DNA of 64,000 nt, taken from positions 62,001 to 126,000 of the forward strand of contig JAUCBJ010009058.1 of NCBI GenBank assembly GCA_032718475.1. The letters run 5' to 3'. The notes below the pieces were generated by a model that made no database searches, was not told the origin of the DNA, and worked only from the letters and a program-made list of their open reading frames with translations. The position numbers and the translations under genes were made by a program. The stretch is from Nemertoderma westbladi. Lineage: Eukaryota > Animalia > Xenacoelomorpha. Below, piece after piece: positions 4,026 through 27,900 of this stretch (position 1 is its first letter; each line of letters begins with the position of its first letter).

Positions 4026-4079
4026 CTGCAGAAAATGATATAAAGTGTCAACCGTATCAAAAATCATAATAAATTAATC

Positions 4080-6738: not shown

Positions 6739-7224
6739 AGTAGTAGAAGAAGAGGGCCCCCCCGCATACTCCTCCCTAGCCTGGGCTACGGGCTGCATCT
6801 CGGAGGGCTATTAAATACGTGCTAAATCGCGATGTTTAATGACCATCTGTCACCATCAATATTGATTCGTATCGATGCCTTCAACCAATCGTTGCCTATC
6901 GCCTACGCATAGCCTAACCTCACGATGCCTACCTTACTCGATAGCTGTTACCAACCATGAGTATTGATTCGTGTTGTTGCATCAACCAACCATCGCATAT
7001 TCATCTTCGCGTAACCTAACTTCACGATGCATGGCTAGCCCCCACTACGCTATTATATTATATATCGATTGCCAACTCACCACCGATAGCCACGCACGGC
7101 TACTCCTCGACGGCTGTCGCCAAACCAATCAATCCAACCAACCAAGCAGCCTACCAGTCCAACGCTATGATACGTGAAATTCCGCCACGTTCCAGCTACA
7201 CGTATACGAATATTTCCATAGTTA
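6739..7224 (+). repeat. Left terminal inverted repeat of the Polinton (486 bp)
   Basis: Reverse complement of 24474-24959 with about 8 mismatches counted by eye. Confidence 0.96.
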
Positions 7225-7647
7225 TTTCCTATCCAGGCAACCAACCAACCACCACCACTGTATACTGTATATGGTAACGACGTGGCCATCTACACGCATC
7301 ATGCATATATTATATTATATTGATTGCCAACTCCACGACCGCTGTCGCCAAATCAACAAACCAACCAGTATGATACATGAGATTCCGTCACGTTCCAGCT
7401 ACGCGTATACGAGCATTAGTGATTATTATTACGCAATAATTTTTTTGTTTATACAGTAGTTCCCTACCAGCTAATCAACCAATCAATAAACCGAATTTAG
7501 GCTATTTCTCAGTTTAAGACCTGTATTATTTTTGAAAATATCTTATATATATAATCTCTTGCTTTAATCACAATTAATCATTTGTAATGGTTTTAGTTTA
7601 AAAGTTTTTACTTTGTTTGTTTGATTTACAATAAAATAAATTAAATA

Positions 7648-8091
7648 ATGTCTTCTGATTCCGATATGGTTATGCCAATGGTAAGGCATTCATTTTTTGC
7701 AGAAGATGGTCAAGCCTATATTGTTATTGATTATACAATTTACCGTCAGGGAGATGATAAATATAAAATTGAGTTTTCTGAAAAAGCCAGGAAAGTTTTA
7801 AGCTCAATTGATATTGATGCTTCTGATAATAGTGTTCATCTCTTAGATTACAACCTGAAAGTTGAGCATGTGGGAAAATTAAGCAACATTTTACTATTAT
7901 CCATGATAGAGGGGTTTATTGTTATTACACAATACAACGAAGCTGGTGAAAAGTTTGAAATACGGCTAAATCGACATAGCCCCTACGAAATTATGTCTTT
8001 CTTTATTGTAATGATTTCAAAAGAATCCTTTATCGAAACTGAAGAATCAAAGGATAATGTTGAATATGTTGATAATATCATTGATTCTTGA
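7648..8091 (+). CDS. Polinton hypothetical acidic protein (147 aa)
   Basis: Open ATG-initiated frame in AT-rich flanks; first gene after the left TIR; no family recognised. Confidence 0.65.
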   Translation: MSSDSDMVMPMVRHSFFAEDGQAYIVIDYTIYRQGDDKYKIEFSEKARKVLSSIDIDASDNSVHLLDYNLKVEHVGKLSNILLLSMIEGFIVITQYNEAGEKFEIRLNRHSPYEIMSFFIVMISKESFIETEESKDNVEYVDNIIDS

Positions 8092-8258
8092 CTTTTCCCT
8101 CTATATTATAAATATTTTATGATTATATATAAAATTTTGATGTTTTAAATAATCGAAAATTGTAGCAGTATTTGTATATACAGTATAATAGTTTTGTTTG
8201 TTGTTGTTGTTGTTGTGTATTGCGGTAATTATTTTCAATTTACTTTAAAATTTGGAAA

Positions 8259-8711
8259 ATGGATATTTTAAATGAAAAATGTCCAGTTTGCTATTCTAAG
8301 TTATTGCAACAACATCGAGATTATTATAAATGTGAAAATAAACATGCAACTTGCGTACAATGTATTGTACAATATTCCGAAATGAATAATTATTGTTCTA
8401 AAATTTGTCCTATTTGTCGCGCACCCATATCTAAGTTTAATATAAAGTTGGCAAGTTATCAACCCTATTATTGGAAAGAGCTTCGCAATATAACTTATAT
8501 TTCTGCGGAAAGTAATGATCCGGGAGATTTATTTACAATATTGGAGAATATTTTTTATAGAAATGTAGTACGACGCTGTTGCTACTATATTCCTTATTTT
8601 TTTAGCAGCGAACATAAAAAAATTATTAGCGCGAAATTTTCGGGAAGTGATTTCCAAACCGCCGATGTTACCTATCATTATTTCGCGTATAAAGATGCTC
8701 ACCATGCTTGA
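8259..8711 (+). CDS. RING-finger protein (putative E3 ubiquitin ligase)
   Basis: C3HC4 spacing: CPVC...CENKHATCVQC...CPICR at the N terminus. Confidence 0.85.
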   Translation: MDILNEKCPVCYSKLLQQHRDYYKCENKHATCVQCIVQYSEMNNYCSKICPICRAPISKFNIKLASYQPYYWKELRNITYISAESNDPGDLFTILENIFYRNVVRRCCYYIPYFFSSEHKKIISAKFSGSDFQTADVTYHYFAYKDAHHA

Positions 8712-8927
8712 AATTACATCAGTCTATACTATAATTGGAAATAGCACCTTTTGTTGCAGCGAGCGTCACATACTGTAGCGGCGTCGTATGTTAATTAAAT
8801 ATACAGTACTCTAATATTGTAGTTGCATCAATTATTGTTATATACATAGTAATGGTGTTGGTTTATTGATATTGATATTGATATTATATTATATTGTATT
8901 GTTGATATATCTTAATAATAATAATAA

Positions 8928-9611
8928 ATGGCTGACTTTAATTCAGGTCCATATAATTTAAACTTTCAAATGGGAACGAGTATGATAATTTCTGGGCCAT
9001 CTGGTTCTGGAAAGTCAACCTTTGTAAGCAATTTAATTAAACACAAGAATGGTTGTTTCAACGAAGCCCCCTTGCGAGTATTGTATTGTTACGGGAGCAA
9101 TCCCCCGACTATTCCCGGTATTACTCACCTTTACAAAGGTTTGCCCAAAAATATAGATAGTTTAGTGAATAGTCGAGATTTATTAATTATAGATGATTTG
9201 TTAACAGAAACTGAGTCCAGTACAGCATTAACTGTATTGTTTACTAAGGTAGCTCATCATTCCAATATATTTATTTGTTTTATAATGCAAAACATGTTTT
9301 ACGGTGGGAAGCATAACCGCACAAGATCAATTAATAGCCATACTTTAGTATTAATGAAAAATCCGAGAGACAGTTTATCGGTTTTAAATTTCGCGAAGCA
9401 GATGTTACCAGGGCAGACCAAATTTTTAGTTGATTCCTATCAAGATGCGACAATTCAACCATTTTCACATTTCTTAATTGATTTACGACAGGAAACACCC
9501 GAACATTTAAGATTTAGATCTGATATATTTTGTAATCATAATTGTTACATTAAAAATTACACTGACTATAAACGTAGCAAAAATAATAATAATAATAATA
9601 ATGATAAATAA
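8928..9611 (+). CDS. A32/FtsK-like genome-packaging ATPase
   Basis: Walker A GPSGSGKST, Walker B LLIIDD, and the Polinton ATPase motifs HHSNI, QN and KNPRD. Confidence 0.95.
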   Translation: MADFNSGPYNLNFQMGTSMIISGPSGSGKSTFVSNLIKHKNGCFNEAPLRVLYCYGSNPPTIPGITHLYKGLPKNIDSLVNSRDLLIIDDLLTETESSTALTVLFTKVAHHSNIFICFIMQNMFYGGKHNRTRSINSHTLVLMKNPRDSLSVLNFAKQMLPGQTKFLVDSYQDATIQPFSHFLIDLRQETPEHLRFRSDIFCNHNCYIKNYTDYKRSKNNNNNNNDK

Positions 9612-9648
9612 TTAATATTTTGTAACAATTTTCAATAATGTTGCAACA

Positions 9649-10032
9649 ATGAATAGACTTGTGCAGAAATATCGTAACGAACTGGAATTTCTACGCAGCG
9701 CTACCCCTCAACAAAGAACTTATTTTATTAACCATACCGCGAGTAACGAATTAATACGGCTCATTGTAAATACTGCATTAAATGTTCTAAAAGGTAATGT
9801 ACAATTAACCCCTCATTCATTTAGAAATATTCGCCGCTATAAGAAGGTATTGAAATCACTCAACCGTAAAACAAAAAATATATCAAGTTACAGAAAAAAG
9901 TTAAGCAATCAATCTGGAGGTATACTACCGTTTCTAATACCCTTACTCGGCATTGGTGCGAAACTCGCCGCGAGTGCCGGAGCCGCCGCCGCTGGAGCAG
10001 CTATTGCTAAAAAAATTAACCGTGGACGGTAA
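9649..10032 (+). CDS. Basic virion core or membrane-active protein with a C-terminal hydrophobic/amphipathic peptide
   Basis: Basic helical N terminus, then QSGG followed by ILPFLIPLLGIGAKLAASAGAAAAG. Resembles the small conserved ORF found after the ATPase in Polintons; QSGG is a plausible adenain cleavage site. Confidence 0.75.
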   Translation: MNRLVQKYRNELEFLRSATPQQRTYFINHTASNELIRLIVNTALNVLKGNVQLTPHSFRNIRRYKKVLKSLNRKTKNISSYRKKLSNQSGGILPFLIPLLGIGAKLAASAGAAAAGAAIAKKINRGR

Positions 10033-10034
10033 TA

Positions 10035-10205
10035 ATGGTTAAAACAGGAGTAACATTTAGAAAATTATATTTAGTATCGAGTAAACTGTTAGCTACTGAT
10101 TTAAAACCTCAAGATATACCTAGAGTAAATACTACAAAAAGAAAACCCTTTAAAACATCAACTTCAAAGAAAATAATTAAAAAATTTCAGTTGTTCTTAC
10201 GGTGA
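10035..10205 (+). CDS. Small basic ORF (56 aa, MVKTGVTFRKLYLVSSKLL...), not in the ORF track
   Basis: ATG two bases after the previous stop (TAATAATG); fills the gap before the integrase; translated by hand. Confidence 0.5.
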   Translation: MVKTGVTFRKLYLVSSKLLATDLKPQDIPRVNTTKRKPFKTSTSKKIIKKFQLFLR

Positions 10206-10256
10206 TGCCCTTTATAAGAGATTTGAATATACATATTACTTGCGGTTGTCGAAAAG

Positions 10257-11345
10257 ATGCCTCGCAAGATGAAACCGATTTTAAGCCGAAGCTTAGACAA
10301 AAAACTGTTAAGAATTTATTTAGATCCTTCATCCCCTGTGGGATTTGCAAGTGTTGCAAAATTAGCAAAAGCTGCAAACATCAAATCAGCACAAGCCCAG
10401 AAATGGATGAGCGGGCAAAAGACATACACCCTTCACGCTCCACGTAGACACCATTATCCAACATCTAAAATATTTACGGGAGGCATAAAAGATATATATA
10501 TGATAGATCTGGTGGATATGCAGCAATATAAGTCGCAAAATAATAATTATAACTATATATTAACATGTATTGATGCCTTTAGCAGGCTTGCTTTTGGCTA
10601 TGATATGAAAACAAAAAAGGGTGTTGAAATTATTAGTATATTGCAAAAAATATTCCAGAAAGGAAAACCAAACAGAATCGCCACGGATCAAGGTTCTGAG
10701 TTTCTAAATAAATCTGTAAGGAAATATTTAGATACGTTAGGTATACAGTATTACGTAATGTACTCTGTGAATAAGGTGGCTATTGTCGAGAGATTCAATA
10801 GAACATTAAAAACAAAGATGTTCAAAATTTTTACACAACGAGGAAATAATGTTTGCATTAAAATTTTACCTAAGCTTATCTCGGCTTATAATAGGTCATA
10901 TCATAGGACAATAAAAATGACGCCTATTGAAGTTAATAAATTTAATGAAACTGAATTAATGAATAGATTATATGGGAAATATAGACAGATTAATCATAAG
11001 AAAATAAAATTTAAAGTTGGAGATACAGTACGATTATCTATCGCTCGTACTGCTTTTGCTAAAGGCTATCGAGAACAATGGACACGTGAATTATTTATTA
11101 TTCATCGTGTCAGGTTGGATAGAGTACCCGCTGTAATGTTCGATATTAAGGACAGCGCTGGAGCTATAATAAAGGGCTCATTTTATTCTCACGAACTCCA
11201 AAAGGTCCACCCGAATAGTAATATTTATCTAGCAATTGATAAAAATATTGGCAAACTTAAAGAACGTGTACGCAATGGGAAGAAAGAATATTTAGTCCGA
11301 TTCATCGGATCCAAGAAACAGTCGTGGGTACAGCATATTCAATAA
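10257..11345 (+). CDS. Retroviral-like (rve) DDE integrase with a C-terminal chromodomain-like remnant
   Basis: IDLVDM, TDQGSEF and VERFNRTLK catalytic triad; YNRSYHRTIKMTP; C-terminal KEYLVRFIG...SW. Confidence 0.96.
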   Translation: MPRKMKPILSRSLDKKLLRIYLDPSSPVGFASVAKLAKAANIKSAQAQKWMSGQKTYTLHAPRRHHYPTSKIFTGGIKDIYMIDLVDMQQYKSQNNNYNYILTCIDAFSRLAFGYDMKTKKGVEIISILQKIFQKGKPNRIATDQGSEFLNKSVRKYLDTLGIQYYVMYSVNKVAIVERFNRTLKTKMFKIFTQRGNNVCIKILPKLISAYNRSYHRTIKMTPIEVNKFNETELMNRLYGKYRQINHKKIKFKVGDTVRLSIARTAFAKGYREQWTRELFIIHRVRLDRVPAVMFDIKDSAGAIIKGSFYSHELQKVHPNSNIYLAIDKNIGKLKERVRNGKKEYLVRFIGSKKQSWVQHIQ

Positions 11346-11621
11346 GCTTAGGTTTATACTGTATATTAATTCATTTTGGTCGCATATGACCGTAATTAAT
11401 CAATATTAACTCGAATGATATTACTATATCTATAGTTCATCCGTTTTAAATAAAGCCAATAAAGCCAGTAAAATATTGATCCCGCGCATATACTGTAGAA
11501 GATGCGACAATGAACGACAATGAACGTGGTCACAGATGTCTATAATTTAACATTATACTGTACTGTACTGTATGTACAATGGAGTCAAGTAGAGAGAGAG
11601 CGAGCTTAAATAATAATAATA

Positions 11622-12494
11622 ATGGCCACAGATACATATATCACTCTACTTTCAGATAGCTCATTAAACACTTACCCCAATAATAATCCTAGCGAGTTTA
11701 CTGTTGATTTAGCCGAAGAATTATATATTGGTCCAAACGCTAAAATTGGGCTTGCCGAGCTTCAATATCAAGCAACATACAGTAATATTACGCTGCAAAC
11801 TCAAATCTCGCTGTCAATCGGGGTAGATGCAAAAGATGCCAAATTATATAGTTTATTTCCCGGTATGCATAACTCTATTTAAGTCATTATTGATGATATA
11901 AATAAACTGTTTAATTCTGAAGCGAAATATAGAGATTTCGAATTCATTTTTAATACAAATAATTCTAGAATTAAATTTAAATTTCCTAAAAAGTTGAAAA
12001 AAATACAATTAAGTCTACGTGGTGATTTAATACAAATTCTAGGCTTAAAACCGTTATTGGATCGGAATCATCCGGATATTCCGAATTGGGATATATACAG
12101 TACCACTACAGTAGATGAATTAAGCAATATAGAACAGCCAATATTAATTTTAAATTATAGCGGGCCAAAAATTTCGGAAATTGGCATTTTAGATTTTCCA
12201 GCTCCCACGAATATAACACGTAATAAAGACACTATCTTTATATACACAGATATTATTAAGAGCTCATTTGTTGGCGACCCTTTAGCACCGCTCTTAAGAA
12301 CCTGCCCTTTAACGCAATTAAATCGAAAATATATTAATCACGAATACGAGAGCATTTGCTATTACCCGTTGTTGAATAAAAAACTAAAAACAATCTTAAT
12401 TACTTTACGTGACGGACAAGGCGAATTAATTAACTTCAGCGGAGGTCGCACTGTTATAACACTTAAGTTAATACGGGGTGGCAGTGATGGATGA
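11622..12494 (+). pseudogene. Minor capsid protein (penton) paralogue 1 with an in-frame TAA at 11880-11882
   Basis: ORFs 11622..11882 and 11994..12494 share a frame. Motifs YITLLSDSS..YP.N..S.F, IFIYTDII..S.VGD..APLLR and C-terminal TVITLKL. Confidence 0.85.
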
Positions 12495-13331
12495 ATTCTA
12501 CGTAAGACTACCAAGTAATTCCTGTCCAATTGATTTTCCCCGCAATAGTGCTAGTAATTATCAGATAAATTTCCATGGCGCCTTACCTATAAACCCAAAC
12601 GAAAACTGGGTGGTAGGTATAAAAAGTATATTTTACTTAGCTACGTTGCCGTCCATGTATAACAATGTAGAGAATGTTTTTATTAAAAAAAGGAAAAAAA
12701 AATTTTGAGGATACACTTCCATCCGGTTTGTTCTACAGTATCAATGACATTATAGATTATTTTAACACGGGGGCGTTGAAAGATAAATTACAAATAGTTG
12801 AAAATACTCAGCAAAATAGGTTGCAATTTATTTTAGGGAAAACTGTGCGCGAGTTATTTATAGGTCAACAATTAGCCTATTATTTTGGAATTACTGAAAA
12901 TAATCTCGGCGCGAATTTAAATCCAAATTTTAAAATTATTTTGAAGACGAAAAATAATATAAAGGGTTATTTAATAAAGGTTATCGGAAATGGAGAAAAA
13001 GCTTACCAGATGGTATTTTTATGCCCTCAACCACCCAATTCTATTCCAGAACCTAAGTCGAACATGTACGTGACTACTAATATAATTGAAAATCAATATA
13101 TTAACGATTTTGGTTTAGCTTTACTTCGTCGTGTTGCGATACCTGATGATGTGAAATATGGTAGCGTAATAAATAAAGAATTTGTCAAGGATACAATTCA
13201 TTATATCCCTGTAAAAAAAATCATATAAGATAACATACATTCATATTGAAATAACAGACAAAGAAGGAAAAGATTTGAATTTTGAATACGGGACAACATC
13301 TATTACATTACACTTTAAACGTATAAATTAA
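12487..13331 (+). pseudogene. Minor capsid protein (penton) paralogue 2 with two frameshifts in A-runs (about 12690 and 13215)
   Basis: FYVRLPSNS...FP.NSASNY at the start, MYVTTNIIENQ...LLRRV centrally. Correcting the second A-run gives IHIEITDKEGKDLNFEYGTTSITLHFKRIN* ending at 13331. Confidence 0.82.
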
Positions 13332-13332
13332 A

Positions 13333-13896
13333 ATGGATTCTGATTTATTTCAAAGATACAGTAAACCTCAATATGGTGGTTCAGACTCTAATCTTGCTGT
13401 TTTTAAAGGTGGTAGAAGTACCAGAGGTTCGACGCAAGTTCCTGTTTTTCGAGGTGGTTCATATATTTACCCTTACGGTCAACAAATTGACACATTTGGT
13501 CCAAACTTAAAACAACGTCGTTTTCAGCGTTATCGTAGAGGTATGCGGGCAAATCAACACGGAGAAGGTATATTTACAGACGCTTTATCGACATTGAAAA
13601 AATTTGGTAAGCCATTAGCTAAAAAAGTTTTACAGAAAGCTTTACCATTTACCACAAAATTTATGAGACAACACGTAATACCAAAAGGTAAGCGGGTCTT
13701 ACATCAGCAGGCTAATACGGTTATTAATAAAGCATTAAATAAAATGAAACCGTCAACAAGGTCAGTTGTAGAAAAAGTTTATAGAGATTTAAAGCGACCC
13801 GCTAGACCAATGTCTATGAACATACATCATGGACGTAGTAATAAAAATAAAAAAATAAAGGGCAAACTGAAACACTGTGAAAAAAGTATTTTTTAA
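13333..13896 (+). CDS. Basic core/cement protein precursor with Gly-Gly cleavage-type motifs
   Basis: QYGG, VFKGG, VFRGG and QHGEG-IF motifs followed by an amphipathic K/R-rich region; lies immediately upstream of the major capsid gene. Confidence 0.75.
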   Translation: MDSDLFQRYSKPQYGGSDSNLAVFKGGRSTRGSTQVPVFRGGSYIYPYGQQIDTFGPNLKQRRFQRYRRGMRANQHGEGIFTDALSTLKKFGKPLAKKVLQKALPFTTKFMRQHVIPKGKRVLHQQANTVINKALNKMKPSTRSVVEKVYRDLKRPARPMSMNIHHGRSNKNKKIKGKLKHCEKSIF

Positions 13897-13898
13897 TA

Positions 13899-15158
13899 AT
13901 GTCAATTATTAAGGAATTAGATTTATTTTCTACACAGCCAATACAGACTGAATTTAAAGCAAAGCATTATGAAACAATTTACCCCGTATCTAATCTCAGA
14001 AGTGAATCTAGGGAGGTCACGTTCCTTGTACCGAGATCCAATGAATTCTATACGAAACTGCAAGACGCGTTATTAATTACAAAATGTACTGTACGCTGGG
14101 ATAGACGACTTGAAAACTCCCATATTTATATGCTGAATTACCCCGCTGAAACTATGTGGAGTGATATTAAAATAGACCTTAATGAGAAGCAGGTTGAAAA
14201 TAGCAATAACCATTATTTCTACAAGTCGTACTTATCCAATTTATTATTTACAACTTACGAGGATAAAAATGGGCTACTGGGTGCGGGTGGCTTTCATCAA
14301 CCTTTATCTGAACACGGAAATGAAATTGATCCCGGCGCGCATCCTATTGCCGATGCCTTTAGTAAACAAATGCAATTTGTAAGTGGATTGACAATTGATT
14401 TTGATACTGAAACTAAAATAATACAACCCGGGTATGATTTAAGAATGCATTTTAGAAAAGTATCAAATTCGTTTATTTTTAAAATCACTCCAAATGCAAA
14501 CGCTGTGACAAATCTTCGGTTAGAATTAGATGAAATAAAGATTCTAATCCCTAGAATGGAGGTTAATCCAGTAATAGAAAGCAGTCACCTAAAAGGTTTA
14601 GAGAGTTACGATATTGAATATCAATTCCAAAAAAAGGAGGTGACAACATTTACTATTCCCGCACAAACCACAAATTACACCCAAACAAACATATTTGATG
14701 GTAAAAAACCCAAATTAGTTATTATTGGCTTCATAACAAATAACGCTTACTCGGGAGAATTAATTAGCAATCCCTTGAAATTTGAACATTTTAACCTTAG
14801 ACGCGCGGAACTGATTGTAGACAGTCTTCCAGTAGGGGGTGTAATATACGAGCCTAATTTTACAGATGGAACATATATTTTTGAGTATACTCAATTAATG
14901 AAGAACATTAATACATATATTAACGGTTATGGAGGTAATAATATAGACCATGAAACCTACTTAGGTAATTGTCCCATCTTATCCTGGGACCTAACCGCCG
15001 ACGGCTATGTTAGAGATCCGCAACCGTCGATATATACTAACGGCCAATTAAAATTAAGATTTGCCGAACCGTTGGTTGAAACCATAAATGTAATCATTTT
15101 TAATATTTATGATCAATCATTAAGTTTAAATAGCAGGAAAGAAATACATATCGATTAA
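13899..15158 (+). CDS. Major capsid protein (double jelly-roll, hexon-like), intact
   Basis: ELDLFSTQPIQT N terminus and IF.GKKPK.VIIGF..N.AYSG...NP.KF.HFNL motifs typical of Polinton capsids; 419 aa. Confidence 0.92.
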   Translation: MSIIKELDLFSTQPIQTEFKAKHYETIYPVSNLRSESREVTFLVPRSNEFYTKLQDALLITKCTVRWDRRLENSHIYMLNYPAETMWSDIKIDLNEKQVENSNNHYFYKSYLSNLLFTTYEDKNGLLGAGGFHQPLSEHGNEIDPGAHPIADAFSKQMQFVSGLTIDFDTETKIIQPGYDLRMHFRKVSNSFIFKITPNANAVTNLRLELDEIKILIPRMEVNPVIESSHLKGLESYDIEYQFQKKEVTTFTIPAQTTNYTQTNIFDGKKPKLVIIGFITNNAYSGELISNPLKFEHFNLRRAELIVDSLPVGGVIYEPNFTDGTYIFEYTQLMKNINTYINGYGGNNIDHETYLGNCPILSWDLTADGYVRDPQPSIYTNGQLKLRFAEPLVETINVIIFNIYDQSLSLNSRKEIHID

Positions 15159-15160
15159 GT

Positions 15161-15613
15161 ATGTTATCTACAGAGGACCTTGATATGTTTCCAGTGGGTG
15201 GTCACTATTTGGGCGCGTTTCCAGCTAATAAATTACCTAAATTAGATAATAATAAGCGGCAGGATTATGGCTTGATAGTAAATACCGATAAAGAGCATCT
15301 GCCTGGGATTCATTGGATCGCGATATATATACGAGATAATGAGGCCGAAGTATTTGACTCGTTTGGACCAAAATATCCAAACAGATGCATCGAAAAATGG
15401 CTTGAGAAATATTCCGCAAGGTGGCGTACTACTCGCAAACAATTTCAAGACCCAAGGAGGACCACATGCGGTCTGTACTGTCTGTATTATTTGGTAAATC
15501 GTATTCACACAATCTATCCAATGAGAGCGTTTACAAATAATGTGGAAATAAATGAAATAATATTATATAAATGGCTTGTTAATTATTATAAAATAAACCA
15601 ACATGCGTTGTAA
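15161..15613 (+). CDS. Adenain-like cysteine protease (virion maturation)
   Basis: NTD...PGIHWIA (His), FDSFG (Asp), Q.....TCGLYCLYYL (Gln/Cys). Confidence 0.94.
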   Translation: MLSTEDLDMFPVGGHYLGAFPANKLPKLDNNKRQDYGLIVNTDKEHLPGIHWIAIYIRDNEAEVFDSFGPKYPNRCIEKWLEKYSARWRTTRKQFQDPRRTTCGLYCLYYLVNRIHTIYPMRAFTNNVEINEIILYKWLVNYYKINQHAL

Positions 15614-15648
15614 TTAATCATTTAGCTTGCTTTTGTTTATCAGATAAA

Positions 15649-16251
15649 ATGGATAATATTATTTTTGTTGATTTTCAATATTATAAGATAGACAATAAGG
15701 AGTATCCGGTAGTATTTAAAGAATTTGCAATATACGATTCTAATTACACCAAAACTAATGTAAAGACGTTTTTAATTAAAGGCCCGTCTAATATTAAGTT
15801 ATCAGCTTTAGATGCAGCTCACGTAAACAATTTACGGGATATGACTTCTCACTTGCCCTGGGACTACGGGGACATTTCTCAAGATGACTTTAAAAAATAT
15901 ATGAAGAGACATTTAAAATATAAAAAAAATATTCATGTATTTGGGTTGCTGAAGCGGGCAATATTAGTTTCCCAACTCGATGTTCTCGAGCCAAATTCGG
16001 TGGAGAAATTGGGAATATATAAACAATATCACGATTATTTAACGCCTTGTCGATTTCACGACCGATTCACTACAGTAGAAAGTAAATGCGCGTTCCACTT
16101 AAACATAAGGGATAACTGTCTGCGATACTGCTCAGCAAAACGCGTTGGGGGGTATGAGGCGCTACACTTTTTCATGAGAAAGCGTTTAACTGCGACTGAT
16201 GATGATGATGATAAACAGAAAGAAATAACTGCGGTGGAAGATGTACTGTAG
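15649..16251 (+). CDS. Putative DnaQ/DEDD-like exonuclease-fold protein
   Basis: N-terminal IFVDFQ...KEFAI, central LPWDYGDI and VFGLLK, C-terminal C..H...C cluster; resembles an accessory nuclease-like ORF of invertebrate Polintons. Confidence 0.55.
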   Translation: MDNIIFVDFQYYKIDNKEYPVVFKEFAIYDSNYTKTNVKTFLIKGPSNIKLSALDAAHVNNLRDMTSHLPWDYGDISQDDFKKYMKRHLKYKKNIHVFGLLKRAILVSQLDVLEPNSVEKLGIYKQYHDYLTPCRFHDRFTTVESKCAFHLNIRDNCLRYCSAKRVGGYEALHFFMRKRLTATDDDDDKQKEITAVEDVL

Positions 16252-16373
16252 GTTTACTCTAAGCATGTAATGTGATGGGATAATATAATTGTTTTAATGT
16301 CAATAAAAATAATAAAAACATTAAAATCTATTTTTTATATCTCAGTTTGACTAAAGGTGTAGGGCTTAAGTTT

Positions 16374-16393
16374 ACACACACACACACACACAC

Positions 16394-16472
<79 letters not shown>
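16374..16472. repeat. (CA)n microsatellite inside the Polinton
   Basis: About 49 CA units with one interruption. Confidence 0.97.
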
Positions 16473-16474
<2 letters not shown>

Positions 16475-17365
16475 GCACCTACCGGTAGCCGGCGGTTGTA
16501 TCAGAGTTTAACTACCAGTAGCTAGCTGATTTTACTACATATGCCAACAACGCTAAACTGTAGAACGGCAGAATGGCCCCCGACAGCAACCACAGAGCTT
16601 TAGCATTACCGGTACCGTACTTACTAATAATAAAATTAAATTAAGTCGACATGCGGGTTCGTGAATACAGCATTAGAGGAGGCCCACCTAACAATAGGCC
16701 TACTGGTACCAGCACGGTAGCACTCTTGTACCTGTATACTTGGATAGCGCAAGAGCATGCTGGTTTCTTTGATTTAAGGATTAGGCTATTACACTTGAAT
16801 GCTTCCAATTTTCTGTTTACAACTTTAATTGGTCTAATCTACATTACTGCGTGCTACTGTTGCATAGGTAAGCCTATACAGCTATAGTTAACTTTATGCG
16901 GGGCCCTTTTTCGCATGTTGACCCAATATGGTTTACGGATAGGTAAGGTACACCTTCATTTGGTTAGGCATATAGGCCTAATGACTACTCCTCAACTGAA
17001 AGCTGACTACCTCACAGACACAATAGGTGTAGTTAGGTACCGGTAGCGCTATTGGACCTATAAAATCCCCTCGCACTCTGTTACTCTAGCTGATACAATA
17101 GGTGTGGTTTGAGGTATAACTATATAAAATCCACCACATTCTCTGGTTATTAACATTCACTCTATGTTAACGATCCTATATAAAACATAGTTAGTTAGTT
17201 TATTTTATTTATTTATGCGTCCGCTTTTTAAGTTAAATTACATATAATATAGACATACACAGACCGGTAACATTTAGGTCTACTTTACAGCTTTATAAAT
17301 GCAGAAATGAGTATGAGTGTACGGGTGTACAGGTGTAGGCCTACTAGTTAGATAGCAGTATCCAT

Positions 17366-17770
17366 CTATGAAAAATGTTGATGATTACCTGTAGGCCTAT
17401 TACAGGTAGGCGTTGCTAGTTTAATTTCTTTCCAAATAGTCTCCATCGGTTCTGTTATAGTTGTAGCGGTCTCTGTTTCCCAATTCTCTTGTAGTGGTAT
17501 TAATTCGTTTTGATTACCGGTACTAACTTCTTCTTCTTCTTCCGTTCCTGGATTTATTCTTATGTTCAAAGTAAAGTTTTTTGTTGTTTCTAACTTTGTA
17601 ACACCGTGTTCGTGATTGATGATATTGGTAAATCCGATTTCAAATTTTTTATTAATGTATCTGATTTCCAAATCGGATACGTTTGAGGATGACACAAAAG
17701 TATCCTCACTCTCAAAATCGAACTTTATGCTGCTTTTCAACGACCGGTTGTTGATATAGGCGAAAGTCAT
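17366..17770 (-). CDS. Polinton hypothetical protein (134 aa) with an acidic/Thr-rich tail
   Basis: ATG-initiated open frame with TATATATAAA about 25 nt upstream on the minus strand; no family recognised. Confidence 0.6.
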   Translation of the reverse strand: MTFAYINNRSLKSSIKFDFESEDTFVSSSNVSDLEIRYINKKFEIGFTNIINHEHGVTKLETTKNFTLNIRINPGTEEEEEVSTGNQNELIPLQENWETETATTITEPMETIWKEIKLATPTCNRPTGNHQHFS

Positions 17771-18458
17771 CTTCTTGCTGTCTCAGGTTAGTTTATATAT
17801 ATAGTCAACTAAGGGTAACAGAACGGGTGGATACAGTATACCGGTATTTGTTTTTTTTTTTTATTTTGGTTAACAAAATTATAGTTCACTGTTAGAAAAA
17901 TTGAGTTTATATATATTTTTGTAGAGGGTCGCAGATGTGTACATTACAAAATTCACATAGTTAACAAAATGCAGAACATAAACCTTTCCCATGAGGATTG
18001 GCGATATATGCTCTGTTCATTGTTCTATTCTGAATGTAGGGAGATGCATAGCGGATGTTTTAATGATATGTACCGGTATACAGAGTAGTAACAGATAGGA
18101 TGGCATCGTCTTTGACTATGAATACCAGCACATATCCCTAATCTTTTCTCACCGAGCTTAGCGTTGCCTGCTGTACACTCGCACACTCATAAGTAACAGA
18201 TGCGCTATTGTGGCTCACTCGTGAGCAACAATGCCAAGTTAGCTAGCTAGCTAGCCGAGGCTGCTGAGTATACTATGCCTACTTGAGTGTTACAAGAAAC
18301 AATCGCTCTACTGAAGTTAATTTCCCCCTCAAACTAGTTATTGATTTTAAAAAAATATTCATAAATTTCTTCTCCCTTCAATTTAATATATATATTTTAC
18401 AGTAAAAATCTCCACCACCAAACAGCAACAACAACAATAAATTTCACTCGTACCGGTA

Positions 18459-19040
18459 CTAATTATATTTTACATCAAAAACCCCCACACCAAACAATAA
18501 TAAATTATTAACCAGCTTGTTGAAAATAGGATAATATATATGAAATTTAAACGGGGAACACATTAATGTACATTTACCAGTGTAGAAACAGCAAACAACA
18601 ACAATATTATTTATTCTGACTTTACAGTTATTGAATATTTCAGGGTCGTATGAAATTTCTAGTTTAACATTATCAAATATAACATAAAACCCGATATTAT
18701 TTATAAGTAACCTATAAATTACAGTATCGATACTAAAAATATAAGTACACAAATTGATTGATTTAAAAATCAAATTAATGTTTGTTTTTTCTAATATATG
18801 TTTTTTCACTTTATTAAAATTATATTTTCCACCGAGAATTGTTATTCGTCCATTTGTAAACATTAATATGGTTGCACCAAATACCTTATATATAAACTGA
18901 TTAGGTTTGAGTACAATTTTACCATTCAATTGCTTTTTTAATTCTTTCAAATTAAGTCCATAAATAATCTGCTTACAACTTATATTTTTATTTACTATTT
19001 GATAATTCATCATCAACACCGTCGTCTTTTGGTTCTTCAT
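18459..19040 (-). CDS. TATA-binding-protein (TBP)-like protein; likely start near 19013 (MMNYQIVN)
   Basis: Two-repeat TBP core: ATILMFTNGRITILGGK resembles TTALIFSSGKMVCTGAK, SYDPEIF resembles SYEPELF, and VVCCFYTGKCTLM resembles VLLIFVSGKVVLT. Length of about 185 aa equals a TBP core. Confidence 0.78.
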   Translation of the reverse strand: MKNQKTTVLMMNYQIVNKNISCKQIIYGLNLKELKKQLNGKIVLKPNQFIYKVFGATILMFTNGRITILGGKYNFNKVKKHILEKTNINLIFKSINLCTYIFSIDTVIYRLLINNIGFYVIFDNVKLEISYDPEIFNNCKVRINNIVVVCCFYTGKCTLMCSPFKFHIYYPIFNKLVNNLLLFGVGVFDVKYN

Positions 19041-22000
19041 AAATTGGTATATTTGATATTTTTATAGGTTTTTTGAGGTTTGTTTTATAGTGCCCCCAAG
19101 GAAGCGATTGATTTTTATTAAGCCAATAAAGTTTATCATCAAAGCTACTGAGTGCAAATTTATTTTGCTTTAAGGTATAAATACGATGTAATTTAGATTG
19201 AAATCTGTGTATGTTTTTTTTTATTTCTTCATTTGAGTTATATGCTTTTAAATATTCTTCATGTGTAATATTCGTTTCCACAACAGCTCTTGTAATACCT
19301 TTTGCTCTACGAATATTTTTATTATTCCATTCCAAAATTGAATATAATTTTGGTCTTAAAAATACTGCTTGTTTAATTTCACGTGAGGCTAGTTCGTCTT
19401 TACAGTAATAGAGTCTGGATTTATTTTTATCGCTGTAGAGCGGGTGATCCTTAGGGTAATTGGATGTATCTAAAATATTATTTTTAATTAATGCTTTTAA
19501 AAAATTATTCTGCGATGTATTATAGTAACAACCTATCAAAGAGTCAGTGTCTGATGCAGCAATTTCAATACGGCAGTTTAATTCTTTCTCAATAGGTAGC
19601 AATTTATTGTAATACAGATCATACATATCCAATTTAGCTAAATAGCCAAATATTTAGCCTACTTAAATGCTCGGGGGCTAACGGTAATTGTAATGTTTGA
19701 TCGTGAATAGCCTTGGGATAATTTAAATCACATATTAAAAAATATCCAGTAGATCCCTCAATGTCTAAATCTACCAAGTACTCGATTAGTTTTTCTGGTA
19801 TTGCATTCTCTAAATGTTTAATACTTACTTCTTTGAATTGTGAGGTGGGTAGTTTTTTACTTAAATTCCCAGAATATAAAGAGTTGAAATCAATATTAAA
19901 AATATGGCATTCTTCCTTAGTAGAATCATATGTACTTGTACCTGGTATATTTGATTCTATATAATGTTTTCGACAAAATGAAACACCACCCCTAATTGAT
20001 TTTTCAAAATCTCTATATGTCTGATAATCCTTTATTAATTCTATTTTACATTTATTATATTTTAGCGCGCAATCATAGGTAAATGACGCGATACTACAGT
20101 AAAAAACCGCTTCTAAATCGTAATTTTGTTTACAAACATTCCTAAAATTCTCAAATATATCGGCAAGCAAACAAACATCAAGTTTTAAATAGGCTAAAAG
20201 ATAATCTTTGAGATTCACACAGTCGAATTATACCCATGATATTCCCGCAAACCTATAATCTTCAATTGTGCATGTTTTTTGACTTAAGTTACTAAAAAAA
20301 TTATTTATAGACGGCAAACCAGTATCATTAAATTTATTTATATCTGTCAAGTACTCGTATGGAAATACTCCTTTCCGTTTAATCGTTGAGTTATTCAAGT
20401 TTGGATAAAAATATTTCATTTCTTGTAGAGTAATAGGTAAAATTGAGCTTATATCATGACTGGCTACATCCTTTGTTGAACACTCAACTAAATTACTTAA
20501 AGAAAAGCTTAAAAATTGATATGTGTCTAAGAAACGTAACTCAATTTTCTTAGAAGTGTTTTTAATTGGGATAAAGGCACTCAGTGAAATATATCGTTCT
20601 GTATTTCTCGGTATAACCTTTATATCCCAATCTGTGTATTTCTTATCTCTAAATCCGCTTTGTAATATACAATGTATATCGTAATTGTTGGAATTGTGCC
20701 CGCAAAGTACATACAGGTATCGTTTCAATGATAAACTTCGGTTACAACTATTACAGGCTACCGCAATATATTTACCTGTAATATGTGAATGGTGTCTGTT
20801 TTTCCCAACATTATTATTAAAGTAACATTACAATAAAAACAAAATTTTGCTTGTTCAAAATTTACAAAATCAATATTAGTAAATGACATAGTTTTATGAG
20901 TGTATATTTCTGACCAACAACATAATTCAGTTAAATCAGTATATAATGAATCTAAGAAATCTTGAATACAATTATTATTATTTGACTTTACGAATGTTTT
21001 CAAATGACATTTTGGAGCATCAATTAATTCAGTATTGGGAACAATTAAATAACTCACAGCACACGGTATATGCTCCTGTATAATTTGATTATTAACTGAC
21101 GGTTGTAAGATACATTCTATATCAAAGTAGGTGACAAACAATGGGGATAAGGTTCTATCTAAATTTGTAAAACTAATGTGTGTTCTTTTTTTATTAGGTA
21201 GTTTCTCGCGCTGACTTCTTCCTTGGTAGCAGGCGAGACGGTGTCGATGAAGAACTTCCGCTCGAAAAAAATGAGCCAAACACCTTTCGCAATATTTCCT
21301 ATTCCTGATATGAAGTGCTCTCGTATTCAGCAATCGATTCAAGTTAGTTATGCAAACATAATGATTCAGTTTAGGTACATTGTTATTTTTTACTACAAGT
21401 AATATATTTAATAACTGTTTATCAGGTGTAATTTTACTAAACGGAGGTTGTCTTAATATAGATACTGGGGTGCGTTTGTTGTCGTTATTCCAACATAATA
21501 AATTAATTATATATTTTGAATTTTGTTTTTCAAAAAGTTTAATTGCTAACTGCCACTCTGTTGGATAATCTTTGTTCCCGTTGTCAAAAATGAAATGAGT
21601 CATATAATTTTTGTACGATGAAGTACACTGTTTGTTGTTTTTCACTTTGCTACTAAATTTTGCAGATATAATTGCCCATTTAAAACAGTCATTATCTACC
21701 GTTTGTATATTTATTGTACAATTTTTACCTGATAGAAGAGCCTTAGGTAATTCCATATACCCATGCCCCTTATATAGTAACGACCTACACTTAGATTCAG
21801 CTAATTTAATTTCAACCCTTAATAAAGATTTAATACGCCACCCAGAACCACGTGTGTTAAAGATGGCTATTTTTTGTAATATATTCCCCAACACATACTC
21901 AAACCATGTGTCAAAACTTTGCGGCGAATCTACAGTATTAATAGCACCACCGGAAGAATTAAAATAAAAGGTTTCCAATTGCTCACCTTCTGAAAAATGT

Positions 22001-22551
22001 GACCTGTACATTAATACATTTAGACCTAACCACAGTCTAAGAACATTCATTTCTTTCAATCTATCTAATATTAACTGAAGAATATTACCTCGAATTTGCA
22101 TTACTGCTGTTTCTACATCGGGATAATCTCTAGAAGTTGGGAGGTCGTGGACATAAATTTCAAGACGATTATCGTGAGCTTCTTGTTCCCGCGTAAAAAT
22201 TGTTGCGCATGTACCAAGAGCCACCCTTAAGTTTTTTCTAGATAATATATTTTTATGTTGCGGAAATTTACGCTTTCTTGTGTAGTAACATTTCAAGTGA
22301 CAATCGTGTCGTAAATAATTGTCATATGTATACTCTTTATTACAGGTAGAACAAGTCAATTGATAGGTGCGGAACTCCATTTCTTTACAACCAGTAGTCG
22401 ATTCATGTCGTTTATAAATTTCGCTGCATGAAGTCACGACATGACACTTTAAACAAGAATAACTTTCAAAATGTGACCGTAGGTGGCGTAAATAATTATG
22501 TCTAGTTACATTCATATGACAGAATGAACAACATATTGTTATTTTATCCAT
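18988..22551 (-). pseudogene. Protein-primed family B DNA polymerase (pPolB), disrupted
   Basis: N-terminal Zn fingers, GSGW, INIQTVDNDCFKWAI, exonuclease motifs YFDIE, HNSNNYD and YLKLDV, then IRGG, motif A DFNSLY and motif C DTDS. Lesions: frameshift near 20820, in-frame TAA at 20228-20230, and a deletion near 19650 that removes motif B. Confidence 0.95.
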
Positions 22552-22737
22552 GTTGAAGTTTGTTTAGATAAATAATAATAATAATAATAAAATATCTCCA
22601 AAGATTAAAATAAAATGAAATGATATGATATTGACTACATCTAAACATTTATATGCTAGCGAGGGAAATAATTTTAAACCAATCACCAATCGCTTATGAC
22701 TATTGGAAACCGCAAAGAGTTTAACTTATGATTAGGC

Positions 22738-23800
22738 TTACATGTTAGGATAATAATCTGGTTTCCATGGAGAATTAGTAACAGGCTCTACTAGAACTGG
22801 GTTACTGACAACTTTCTGTTTCTTTGCAGGTGATGCGTTGGTAAATTTACTCGATGATCTTGGCTTCCGAGGTAATATTTCAGGAAAGACCTGTTGCGGT
22901 TGAGAGCAACTCTCTTCAACATCTGGATTAGGTGATGGGATCTCTACGAACGCTTTAGGTTTATCCAAAAGGACAAAACCGTCAACATGGGCTTCAGTAA
23001 GAGAAACGCCATCCAGCGATTCTTTGAGAAAACTAATATGGGCTTTATCATTCAAGTAATGCAACTCGATAGAATTTCCGCCGGCACCTACTTCAGTAGA
23101 ATTATCGGTGTTGGTGATAATAATTTTTTTATTATTGGTTTTAATCATTTTGAGACGGTCTGATAATTGAATGATATTTTTATCAAAAAGATGCTTGTCT
23201 GTTTCATCGACTTGGTTGTCCCACTCTCGCAACAAAACGGTTAGTTCCTGTTTTGACAAATTGAAACCTGTATAATAGTTAAAACCAACACTATCAGTGT
23301 ATCTGAGGCTGATTTTCCATAAGCCAACATAGTTGGTTCCTTTAAAAGCTGTTACAAATCCAATAAACTCTGGATTTGATAATTCAATGTAGAATTGATC
23401 GCTAATAATCTCTAGCGGTGGAGAGAGAAATTGCAATAATTTCCCTCTGTATTGAATTAGAACTTCAGTAAAAGCTTTGTTGAGAACTTTACATTTGCCT
23501 TGTTTCTGAACGTAAACATCACCCGATGTGGGGTTGATGGAAATATTCAAATTTCCCTGCGCAAAACGAAGAGTGGGATATATCCTACCTGGTATAATTG
23601 CTGGTCTGGATTGATGTTGGTTGTTGGTTGTTTCTAGAATGTCTAACAAATAGCGGGTATCTTGATGGGAAAATACAAATTGATTCGTTGTCCTCCTGAG
23701 ATTCCACAATAAAATACTTGCTGTGAACGACGGTACAAGTATATTTATTGTAAGTAAATTTCCAGCTATTTGTTGCTCCGGTTTTTTGCGTTAAGGCCAT
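22738..23800 (-). CDS. Putative PC4/Sub1-like ssDNA-binding protein; probable frameshift near the N terminus joining ATG 23800 to the 323-aa frame
   Basis: FVTAFKGTNYVGLWKI...TGFNLSKQELTVL resembles PC4 VSVRDFKGKVLIDIREY...KGISLNPEQWSQL; C-terminal PAKKQK is NLS-like. The long frame lacks its own ATG. Confidence 0.55.
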
Positions 23801-23864
23801 AATAATAATAATAAATACGAAAAATATTACAAGTGATAAATTTTAAACCGTATCGCTGTAATAA

Positions 23865-24149
23865 ATTGACACCATAGTTCTCACTCTAAAATTGTGTTGG
23901 TCGGAAAACGACACCTAAGAAAAATGATGCTGAGTTCGACATTAGGTATCGACTCAAAAACAAAGATCGGGTGAGACACGTAGCTCAGATTTTCGTTTTT
24001 AGGTCGATACCCAATGCTGGAATCAGTATCATTTTATGCGGTGTCGTTTTCCGACCAACGAATATACAACGAGTAAGATAATGTATAAATTATTAAGGAA
24101 AAAAACACAATTTCAGAGTGAGAACAAAAAAAATTAGATATGGTATCAA
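23865..24149. other. Long imperfect inverted repeat (hairpin) in the right subterminal region
   Basis: Perfect 20-bp arms at 23896-23915 and 24040-24059, with further paired segments inside and outside them. Confidence 0.85.
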
Positions 24150-24473
24150 TATATTACCATGAAGATTACAAGTGATGAATTTTATTAAAAACATTCACTT
24201 ATATATATATAAATTTGCGATGTGGCATAGTCAACGAAGAAGAGATGGTACGTGTCATAATCATCAACGAATAAGAAAAGAGATGGGGAGCAACGTGGAT
24301 GAATAGCTGGCTGGTTGATTGCGTGGATAGGAAATACGTGAAAGAATATGAATCATAGGGTTGTGTGCGATAATAATCAATAATTATTATAATAAAAACG
24401 TGCAGTATAATGTTAGTGGTGGTAGCCTTTCAATATGGCACAGATGCTGTGGGATTGGTTAGGTTAGGTTGAG

Positions 24474-24959
24474 TAACTATGGAAATGTTCGTATACGTGT
24501 AGCTGGAACGTGGCGGAATTTCACGTATCATAGCGTTGGACTGGTAGGCTGCTTGGTTGGTTGGATTGATTGGTTTGGCGACAGCCGTCGAGGAGTAGCC
24601 GTGCGTGGCTAGCGGTGGTGAGTTGGCAATCGATATATAATATAATAGCGTAGTGGGGGCTAGCCATGCATCGTGAAGTTAGGTTACGCGAAGATGAATA
24701 TGCGATGGTTGGTTGATGCAACAACACGAATCAATACTCACGGTTGGTAACAGCTATCGAGTAAGGTAGGCATCATGAGGTTAGGCTACGCGTAGGCGAT
24801 AGGCAACGATTGGTTGAAGGCATCGACACGAATCAATATTGATGGTGACAGATGGTCATTAAACATCGCGATTTAGCACGTTTTTAATAGCCCTCCGAGA
24901 TGCAGCCCGTAGCCCAGGCTAGGGAGGAGTACGCGGGGGGGCCCTCTTCTTCTACTACT
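24474..24959 (-). repeat. Right terminal inverted repeat of the Polinton (486 bp)
   Basis: Reverse complement of 6739-7224; ends CTTCTTCTACTACT. Confidence 0.96.
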
Positions 24960-27900
24960 ACCCAGATCCAAGCTATCGATGATACAGTTAACAACTTACT
25001 TTCTACAGAGGCCCAGATCCAAGCTATCGATGATACCGTTAATAACTTAGTTGTGTTTCTACAGAGGCCCTCTACAGAGACCCAGATCCAAGCTTTCGAT
25101 GATACAGTTAACAACTTACTTGTGTTTCTACAGAGGCCCAGATCCAAGCTATCGATGATACAGTTAACAACTTACTTGTGTTTCTACAGAGGCCCAGATC
25201 CAAGCTATCGATGATACAGTTAACAACTTACTTGTGTTTCTACAGAGACCCAGATCCAAGCTATCGATGATACAGTTAACAACTTACTTGTGTTTCTACA
25301 GAGACCCAGATCCAAGCTATCGATGATACAGTTAACAACTTACTTGTGTTTCTACAGAGACCCAGATCCAAGCTATCGATGATACAGTTAACAACTTACT
25401 TTCTACAGAGGCCCAGATCCAAGCTATCGATGATACAGTTAACAACTTACTTGTCTTTCTACAGAGACCCAAATCCAAGCTATCGATGATACAGTTAACA
25501 ACTTACTTGTGTTTCTACAGAGACCCAGATCCAAGCTTTCGATGATACAGTTAACAACTTACTTGTGTTTCTACAGAGGCCCAGATCCAAGCTATTGATG
25601 ATACAGTTAACAACTTACTTGTGTTTCTACAGAGGCCCAGATCCAAGCTATCGATGATACAGTTAACAACTTACTTGTGTTTCTACAGAGACCCAGATCC
25701 AAGCTATCGATGATACAGTTAACAACTTACTTGTGTTTCTACAGAGACCCAGATCCAAGCTATCGATGATACAGTTAACAACTTACTTGTTTTTCTACAG
25801 AGACCCAGATCCAAGCTATCGATGATACAGTTAACAACTTACTTTCTACAGAGGCCCAGATCCAAGCTATCGATGATACCGTTAATAACTTACTTGTGTT
25901 TCTACAGAGGCCCAGATCCAAGCTATCAATGATCCAGTTAACAACTTACTTGTGTTTCTACAGAGACCCAGATCCAAGCTATCGATGATACAGTTAACAA
26001 CTTACTTTCTACAGAGGCCCAGATCCAAGCTATCGATGATACCGTTAATAACTTACTTGTGTTTCTACAGAGACCCAGATCCAAGCTATCGATGATACAG
26101 TTAACAACTTACTTGTGTTTCTACAGAGACCCAGATCCAAGCTATCGATGATACAGTTAACAACTTACTTGTGTTTCTACAGAGACCCAGATCCAAGCTA
26201 TCGATGATACAGTTAACAACTTACTTTCTACAGAGGCCCAGATCCAAGCTATCGATGATACCGTTAATAACTTACTTGTGTTTCTACAGAGACCCAGATC
26301 CAAGCTATCGATGATACAGTTTACAACTTACTTGTGTTTCTACAGAGACCCAGATCCAAGCTATCGATGATACAGTTAACAACTTACTTGTTTGTTTCTA
26401 CAGAGACCCAGATCCAAGCTATCGATGATACAGTTAACAACTTACTTGTGTTTCTACAGAGACCCAGACCCAAGCTATCGATGATACAGTTAACAACTTA
26501 CTTGTGTTTCTACAGAGACCCAGATCCAAGCTATCGATGGTACAGTTAACAACTTACTTGTGTTTCTACAGAGACCCAGATCCAAGCTATCGATGATACA
26601 GTTAACAACTTACTTGTGTTTCTACAGAGACCCAGATCCAAGCTATCGATGATACAGTTAACAACTTACTTGTGTTTCTACAGAGGCCCAGATCCAAGCT
26701 ATTGATGATACAGTTAACAACTTACTTGTGTTTCTACAGAGACCCAGATCCAAGCTATCGATGATACAGTTAACAACTTACTTGTGTTTCTACAGAGACC
26801 CAGATCCAAGCTATCGATGATACAGTTAACAACTTACTTGTTTGTTTCTACAGAGACCCAGATCCAAGATATCGATGATACAGTTAACAACTTACTTGTG
26901 TTTCTACAGAGACCCAGATCCAAGCTATCGATGATACAGTTAACAACTTACTTGTGTTTCTACAGAGACCCAGATCCAAGCTATCGATGATACAGTTAAC
27001 AACTTACTTGTGTTTCTACAGAGACCCAGATCCAAGCTATCGATGATACAGTTAACAACTTACTTTTTTGTTTCTACAGAGACCCAGATCCAAGCTATCG
27101 ATGATACAGTTAACAACTTACTTGTGTTTCTACAGAGACCCAGATCCAAGCTATCGATGATACAGTTAACAACTTACTTGTGTTTCTACAGAGACCCAGA
27201 TCCAAGCTATTGATGATACAGTTAACAACTTACTTGTGTTTCTACAGAGACCCAGATCCAAGCTATCGATGATACAGTTAACAACTTACTTTTTTGTTTC
27301 TACAGAGACCCAGATCCAAGCTATCGATGATACAGTTAACAACTTACTTGTGTTTCTACAGAGACCCAGATCCAAGCTATCGATGATACAGTTAACAACT
27401 TACTTGTGTTTCTACAGAGACCCAGATCCAAGCTATCGATGATACAGTTAACAAGTTACTTGTGTTTCTACAGAGACCCAGATCCAAGCTATCGATGATA
27501 CAGTTAACAACTTACTTGTTTGTTTCTACAGAGACCCAGATCCAAGATATCGATGATACAGTTAACAACTTACTTGTGTTTCTACAGAGACCCAGATCCA
27601 AGCTATCGATGATACAGTTAACAACTTACTTGTGTTTCTACAGAGACCCAGATCCAAGCTATCGATGATACAGTTAACAACTTACTTGTGTTTCTACAGA
27701 GACCCAGATCAAAGCTATCGATGATACAGTTAACAACTTACTTGTGTTTCTACAGAGACCCAGATCCAAGCTTTCGATGATACAGTTAACAACTTACTTG
27801 TGTTTCTACAGAGACCCAGATCCAAGCTATCGATGATACAGTTAACAACTTACTTGTGTTTCTACAGAGGCCCAGATCCAAGCTATCGATGGTACAGTTA

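Follow-up and report, generated by a model that had tools for sequence, protein, structure and literature searches.

TATA-binding protein (TBP)-like proteins are encoded by large dsDNA viruses, mostly alongside a TFIIB of their own (Ravarani et al. 2020, PMC7221094), and the beta- and gammaherpesviruses encode the TBP mimics ORF24, BcRF1 and UL87 (PMC12529657). These two sources also provide precedents for virus-encoded TBP activators. Closer to the element described here, the label 'TBP' has been given to a gene in MELD viruses that have an adintovirus-like PolB, in the legend to Fig. 5 of Starrett et al. 2021 (PMC8502044; preprint 10.1101/697771). The supplementary maps of animal adintoviruses in PMC8502044 bear no TBP label in the part of their text that was covered, and Polinton, Maverick and adintovirus are not named in those supplements of PMC7221094 that were searched. 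Beyond the figure-legend label, nothing on a Polinton TBP was found in the literature covered, which excludes most subscription journals, Repbase reports and figures.

The window analysed here, a stretch of 64,000 nucleotides from Nemertoderma westbladi (contig JAUCBJ010009058.1), contains a Polinton with a TBP-like ORF (Table 1). As in the MELD viruses, a TBP-like gene is found in a mid-size Polinton-class element. However, theirs is a legend label without analysis, in a section on non-animal datasets, whereas the element in the window has the full animal-type Polinton gene set (PMC8502044). Like the TBPs of large dsDNA viruses, the window protein has two lobes, Phe kept at the DNA face and an N-lobe regulator surface that seems to have drifted. 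The viral TBPs vary at the acidic C-lobe positions, whereas the window protein keeps D/E there, in an element with no detectable TFIIB or RNA polymerase gene (PMC7221094). With ORF24, BcRF1 and UL87 it would have in common that it is a viral TBP of divergent sequence, dependent on host Pol II and on TBP-like phenylalanines (PMC12529657). However, ORF24 is a large multidomain protein in a viral complex and is predicted to be incompatible with TFIIB (PMC12529657), whereas the window protein consists of the 184-aa core alone, retains the TFIIB loop and has no partners that were recognised. The predicted two-repeat saddle, the four Phe positions, the Y-[DE]-P-E-x-F loop and the G-[KR] turns are shared with cellular TBP (PF00352; 1cdw, 1ytb). 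The window protein differs from cellular TBP in being only ~20 % identical, in its shortened strands and N-lobe helix, in a small insertion that precedes the C-lobe loop, and in the apparent replacement of one dyad Asn and several base contacts.

Long terminal inverted repeats, AG termini and a 6-bp target duplication are features of the Polinton family. The TBP ORF lies inside a complete 18.2-kb Polinton (6739-24959), in which pPolB, the rve integrase, the ATPase, the protease, the major capsid protein, the repeats, AGTAGT ends and the target duplication were all found. In this copy pPolB is broken at three places, by frame changes near 20761-20827 and 19637-19653 and by an in-frame stop at 20228-20230. 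The labels of minor-capsid-like genes 1 and 2 follow general resemblance and are tentative. Pfam detected neither a TFIIB or cyclin family nor an RNA polymerase family among the 21 distinct frames of the element, several of its ORFs being without any family.

Table 1. Features of the Polinton in the window and of the TBP-bearing fragment L139. Positions are those of the window unless L139 is indicated.
Feature	Position	Strand	Remarks
Target-site duplication, left copy	6733-6738		6 bp, ACCCAG
Left terminal inverted repeat	6739-7224		486 bp, begins AGTAGT
ORF, 147 aa	7648-8091	+	No Pfam match
RING-finger-like accessory ORF	8259-8711	+	zf-RING_2 E 0.005, below cut-off
Packaging ATPase (P-loop)	8928-9611	+	Weak P-loop Pfam matches including Pox_A32 E 0.005; matches ATPase of other Polintons
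pX-like core protein gene	9649-10032	+	Adeno_PX E 0.013
Retroviral-type integrase	10257-11345	+	Pfam rve E 9e-12
Minor-capsid-like gene 1	11622-12494	+	In-frame stop 11880-11882; no Pfam match
Minor-capsid-like gene 2	12487-13331, 3' end approximate	+	Broken near 12677-12705 and near 13213-13228
Basic 187-aa ORF before major capsid gene	13333-13896	+	ORF list
Major capsid protein (MCP)	13899-15158	+	23-27 % identical to nearest relatives; two of them named capsid / major capsid protein in UniRef
Adenovirus-type maturation protease	15161-15613	+	Peptidase_C5 E 2.5e-5
ORF, 200 aa	15649-16251	+	No convincing Pfam match
ORF, 134 aa	17366-17770	-	No convincing Pfam match
TBP-like ORF	18459-19040	-	193 aa from first ATG; 184 aa from Met10 at 19013
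TBP lobes	N-lobe ~ residues 12-90; C-lobe ~ residues 95-183	-	Profile matches and model
Protein-primed family B DNA polymerase (pPolB)	18988-22551	-	DNA_pol_B_2 E 1e-4 on middle piece; pieces match pPolB of other Polintons
Two canonical TATAAAA boxes	19059-19089	-	At 19089 and 19066, within the C-terminal tail of pPolB, 76 and 53 nt ahead of Met10
Gene of ~350 aa, broken near 23790	22738-23800	-	No Pfam match
Right terminal inverted repeat	24474-24959		98 % complementary to left
Target-site duplication, right copy	24960-24965		6 bp, ACCCAG
DWNN-domain ORF	L139:2293-2520	+	29.6 bits
Near-canonical eukaryote-type TBP core, ~172 aa	L139:2559-3077	-	Pfam 152.7 bits; human TBP E 1e-44

Some further observations concern the element and its surroundings. 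The insertion site is a long satellite array with a 56-bp unit, found at 4037-6738 and from 24960 to ~44000 (393 overlapping repeat windows). In the convergent intergenic region (16480-18460), the palindromes ACCGGT and AGGCCT occur 9 and 4 times, respectively, and nowhere else in the element; both are present in host DNA beyond 45000. For the broken gene at 22738-23800 (-), the Atlas look-alikes, with scores of 0.82-0.87 that fall below 0.9 and serve as a lead only, are viral clusters and clusters resembling the PCNA/Rad1/Hus1 clamps. Contigs matching the element family were also found in a run labelled organism B.

An intact ORF of about 185 aa overlapping the pPolB stop had been claimed in the first-pass annotation, and this holds, with 193 or 184 aa depending on the start. 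The overlap with the C-terminal frame of pPolB (18988-19626) is 53 nt, or 26 nt if counted from Met10, which is the likely start judging from the alignment to TBP cores. The three motifs quoted there are exact, at residues 58-72, 130-136 and 150-159. No plus-strand frame of at least 70 codons overlaps the ORF. The predicted protein has a pI of 9.6, and the GC3 of the ORF, 0.22, is equal to that of the pPolB C-terminus; the codon composition fits the element and not a fresh capture. The same annotation had pointed out that the ORF stays open while its neighbours are damaged. As a description this is correct. As evidence it has little weight, 11 of the 15 genes of this copy being open. With ~7 breaks spread over ~13.3 kb of coding sequence, a 0.58-kb ORF has, by hand arithmetic, a ~0.74 chance of escaping, and because of this the open frame of a single copy is uninformative and was rejected as an argument for function.

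The ORF was confirmed as a two-lobe TBP homologue. Pfam PF00352 matches it in two stretches with an E value of 3.5e-6 and 27.2 bits, above the curated cut-off of 22.9. Each half alone also matches Pfam TBP, below the cut-off (E 0.003 and 0.014), and a single-lobe TBP profile finds two domains in the protein (13.1 and 14.1 bits), so that both of the TBP-saddle halves recognised by eye in the first reading are borne out. A direct BLAST comparison of the N-half with the C-half was not significant. Against an independent profile made from 124 archaeal and viral TBPs, with the query left out, the protein scored 20.7 bits, compared with 8.5 bits for the best of 2000 shuffles and 3.1 bits for the reversed sequence. 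TBP clusters made up 29 of 30 matches in the ESM Atlas (score 0.94; 202/256 features common), with a recognition value of 1711 that is below the tool's mark of 2300. Identity to other TBPs is 18-27 %. No close relatives were found among PDB sequences, 5.8 billion proteins, 1.84 billion representatives, viral contigs or metagenome contigs, and a phage search returned only three chance matches at E 7. Judged by the sequence comparisons made, the protein belongs to the TBP family.

A structure model from the single sequence did not fold (pLDDT 32). When guided by a 59-row TBP alignment, the model has the strand and helix order of TBP twice (pLDDT 73, pTM 0.56). With this guided model, Foldseek returned 44 PDB matches at E <= 0.001, TBP throughout among the matches listed, with TM values to real TBP of 0.40-0.46, and a VIA comparison with a solved TBP gave Z 12.1 and an rmsd of 6.1 Å over 168 residues. 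A Foldseek search of viral models returned TBP-like proteins of large dsDNA viruses. The structural agreement is partly circular, as the model was guided by a TBP alignment, and the angle between the modelled lobes is uncertain.

Residues were numbered as in yeast TBP via L044, a giant-virus-type TBP whose alignment to the human and yeast proteins is free of gaps. F49, F61, F136 and F152 align to yeast F99, F116, F190 and F207 (posterior 9,*,*,9; F49 adjoins a 3-residue gap), which we take to be the DNA-intercalating Phe of TBP, and all four positions are thus kept. The L5.1 Phe of TBP is placed at the DNA face in PMC7221094. The acidic C-lobe pair, yeast E186 and E188, is retained on the TFIIB surface as D132 and E134. 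Positions C.L3.2 and C.L3.4, an acidic C-lobe pair tied to TFIIB binding, are ~40 % conserved in viruses with their own TFIIB (PMC7221094, section 11), and we infer that they correspond to yeast E186 and E188. Relative to TBP, residues T57, L59, G64, R65, G70, K72, R142, G155 and K156 are likewise retained or replaced conservatively.

Other positions have changed. Yeast Val122 and Val213 are replaced by Thr, one in each lobe, Thr124 by Leu and Thr215 by Met, and further changes at base or backbone contacts are L205 to C, P191 to N and R98 to Q. We take V122, T124, V213, T215 and L205 to be base contacts, and yeast N69 and N159 to be the dyad Asn pair. N17 aligns to N69 and T99 to N159, the second Asn having become Thr, both at a low posterior of 6. 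To judge from these contact positions, TATA binding may be weakened or altered. The N-lobe helix is ~5 residues shorter and still Lys-rich, in a region where the alignment is weak (posterior 3-4); the basic patch on this helix in eukaryotic TBP is presumably the site for TFIIA, TAF1, Mot1 and Brf.

TBP surfaces that are partly kept and partly eroded would also suit a decoy or repressor that sits on the TATA boxes of the host, or sequesters its TFIIB or Brf, and in this way dampens host transcription or defence genes. For a protein sponge the full set of four Phe positions would be superfluous, yet all are kept, and a repressor that blocks DNA would profit from loss of the acidic loop, which is retained without replacements among the 31 sites that vary between copies (see below). 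Retention of the Phe positions and of the acidic TFIIB loop favours an active factor over such a decoy, which we consider possible but rather unlikely.

Contigs from all four of the four runs cover the TBP ORF, and one of them (X4 record 22, 18667-19312) bridges it to pPolB. In run X1 (organism A) the element (6739-24959) is matched by 24,633 contigs, about three quarters of them at >=95 % identity. The TBP gene thus belongs to the fixed content of an abundant family. Among the copies, 31 sites in the TBP ORF are variant, of which 19 are at codon position 3 (10.2 expected, p 0.0007) and 14 are synonymous (7.6 expected, p 0.008), with p-values that are optimistic because the sites are linked within subfamilies and not independent, and because the contig comparison took in only stretches at least 80 % alike. 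The single indel found among the copies of the ORF is in frame. The replacements are clustered, 14 of 17 being in codons 83-130, whereas the DNA-facing strands (codons 44-70 and 131-160) contain three variants, all synonymous, and no replacement affects the Phe positions or the acidic-loop residues. The third-position bias points to purifying selection on the ORF, and this pattern of variants across copies is better evidence for selection than the intact frame.

Stop variants were absent among the copies of the ORF, which is not significant (0 versus 1.7 expected, p 0.16). This, the extreme divergence of the protein (branch length 6.15 in the tree described below) and the lack of relatives in the sequence searches are what a captured host TBP gene in decay, with no current function, could also present. 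Such decay is nevertheless very unlikely, given a frame that is open despite ~78 % divergence from any TBP, the excess of third-position variants, the key motifs kept in both lobes and a codon composition (GC3 0.22) that matches the element.

The TATAAAA pair upstream of Met10 (Table 1) is a candidate promoter of the TBP gene. Across the element, TATAWA precedes 9 of 15 genes against a background of 0.30, this being one of 12 patterns tried and the background including coding DNA. Gibbs sampling found no element-specific promoter motif, the scores being within or barely above the control range, and for exact 5-7-mers before the genes of the element the best family-wise p was 0.10. Three TATAAAA-type boxes in similar contexts were seen in the intergenic region at 17059-17190 (+), with no long plus-strand ORF after them. 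The window element has no canonical TATA box before its own ATPase and MCP genes.

In Polinton loci L052-L139, canonical TATA boxes were found before 19 of 28 ATPase genes, 58 of 78 MCP genes and 60 of 67 genes preceding MCP (background 0.13), counts that include L139 as well as, in the case of ATPase and MCP, the window, and that are not independent, as the MCPs form 13 clusters at 70 % identity. In these relatives the distance from the box is mostly 36-47 nt to the ATPase ATG, and 93-120 nt to MCP, where the box falls within the preceding gene. Because canonical TATA boxes are common in loci without a detectable TBP (87 of 88), host TBP seems sufficient for Polinton promoters. The same TATA promoters in Polintons without a detectable TBP mean that activation by a TBP of the element is not required, and this, with the lack of a private promoter motif, is in keeping with the decoy or repressor described above.

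In a post hoc comparison, the variant TATAWAC precedes 5 of 15 genes here (background 0.07), compared with 6 of 171 ATPase, MCP or pre-MCP genes of the relatives. This variant is one box that could take part in a one-protein orthogonal promoter switch, in which the matched changes in both lobes (Val to Thr, and Thr to Leu or Met) would retarget TBP to a variant box, for example TATAWAC, and the protein, its TFIIB loop being intact, would drive the genes of the element via host TFIIB and Pol II with no other viral factor. We regard this extension as unlikely; if true, it would parallel, in minimal form, the late transcription of herpesviruses and giant viruses.

To survey other Polintons, 88 Polinton-type loci were gathered with an alignment of 14 of 31 capsid relatives (median length 5.2 kb, with 12 reaching 10 kb or more), the metagenome part consisting of the best 80 of 581. 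A TBP was detected in one of the 88, L139, a figure that is a lower bound for other lineages, as most of the loci are partial and only ~24 % identical to the window capsid. A TBP-profile match in L066 (11.5 bits) was rejected as an antisense frame over the integrase. Scans of viral contigs with the pPolB C-terminus, the window MCP and the ATPase motif gave no matches. The survey agrees with the statement in the first-pass annotation that TBP is not part of the standard Polinton core set; because Polinton loci without a detectable TBP carry TATA boxes too, TBP is an optional accessory of Polintons. A position next to pPolB did not prove to be a shared layout, with no TBP behind the pPolB C-terminus in any of the 18 other loci that hold it.

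This position bears on a further possibility, namely that the protein is an architectural DNA-bending protein outside transcription, acting for example at the terminal repeats in replication, integration or packaging. The overlap of the gene with the end of pPolB on the same strand, the basic protein, and Phe positions retained while base-reading residues have drifted could all be accommodated by such a role. It is quite unlikely, however, in view of the acidic TFIIB-type loop that is kept and of a pPolB-adjacent position that is not conserved (0 of 18 loci), the TBP of L139 adjoining the ATPase.

L139 is an 11.6-kb Polinton fragment with ATPase, pX, integrase, capsids and protease that is filed in a bacterial MAG, and it is likely to be eukaryotic DNA binned by mistake. 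Like the window protein, its TBP is a bare core encoded in a Polinton; both retain the acidic loop, and both have Leu at yeast position 124. The L139 protein differs in being near-canonical and in its divergent orientation beside the ATPase. Neither sequence comparison nor the tree detected a specific kinship between the two. In the tree, which held two cellular eukaryotic TBPs and no TRF2/TBPL1, the L139 TBP groups with eukaryotic and giant-virus TBPs (95/83). A tree with host and viral TBPs thus places the L139 protein and does not place the window protein, which has a branch length of 6.15 and an unusual composition. In AU tests a grouping with the L139 TBP was disfavoured at p 0.016 and one with eukaryote-type TBPs at p 0.018, both values being unreliable owing to long-branch pull. 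There may have been several independent captures of TBP by Polintons. Separately, we note that six more prokaryote genome assemblies (L133-L138) contain Polinton capsid genes, probably through host contamination of symbiont or metagenome bins.

Because the four Phe positions are combined with an intact acidic loop, we favour an activator over the alternatives, namely a diverged, Polinton-encoded protein that acts as a viral substitute for TBP and works through host TFIIB and Pol II. We give this reading an even chance of being correct. The gene would be expressed from the TATAAAA pair that lies in the tail of pPolB, and its product is predicted to bind AT-rich TATA-type promoters of the element. 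There it would recruit host TFIIB and RNA polymerase II, and with an N-lobe helix ~5 residues shorter it would be less subject to control by the host factors that grip this helix.

To our knowledge, gene control in Polintons has barely been described, and a Polinton-borne TBP is a concrete handle for testing it. The finding extends virus-encoded TBP from large viruses, which have their own TFIIB, polymerase or a multi-protein complex, to an 18-kb element that seemingly brings TBP alone. A TBP that is only ~20 % identical, with the Phe positions and the TFIIB loop kept, also lends itself naturally to testing which residues TATA recognition requires.
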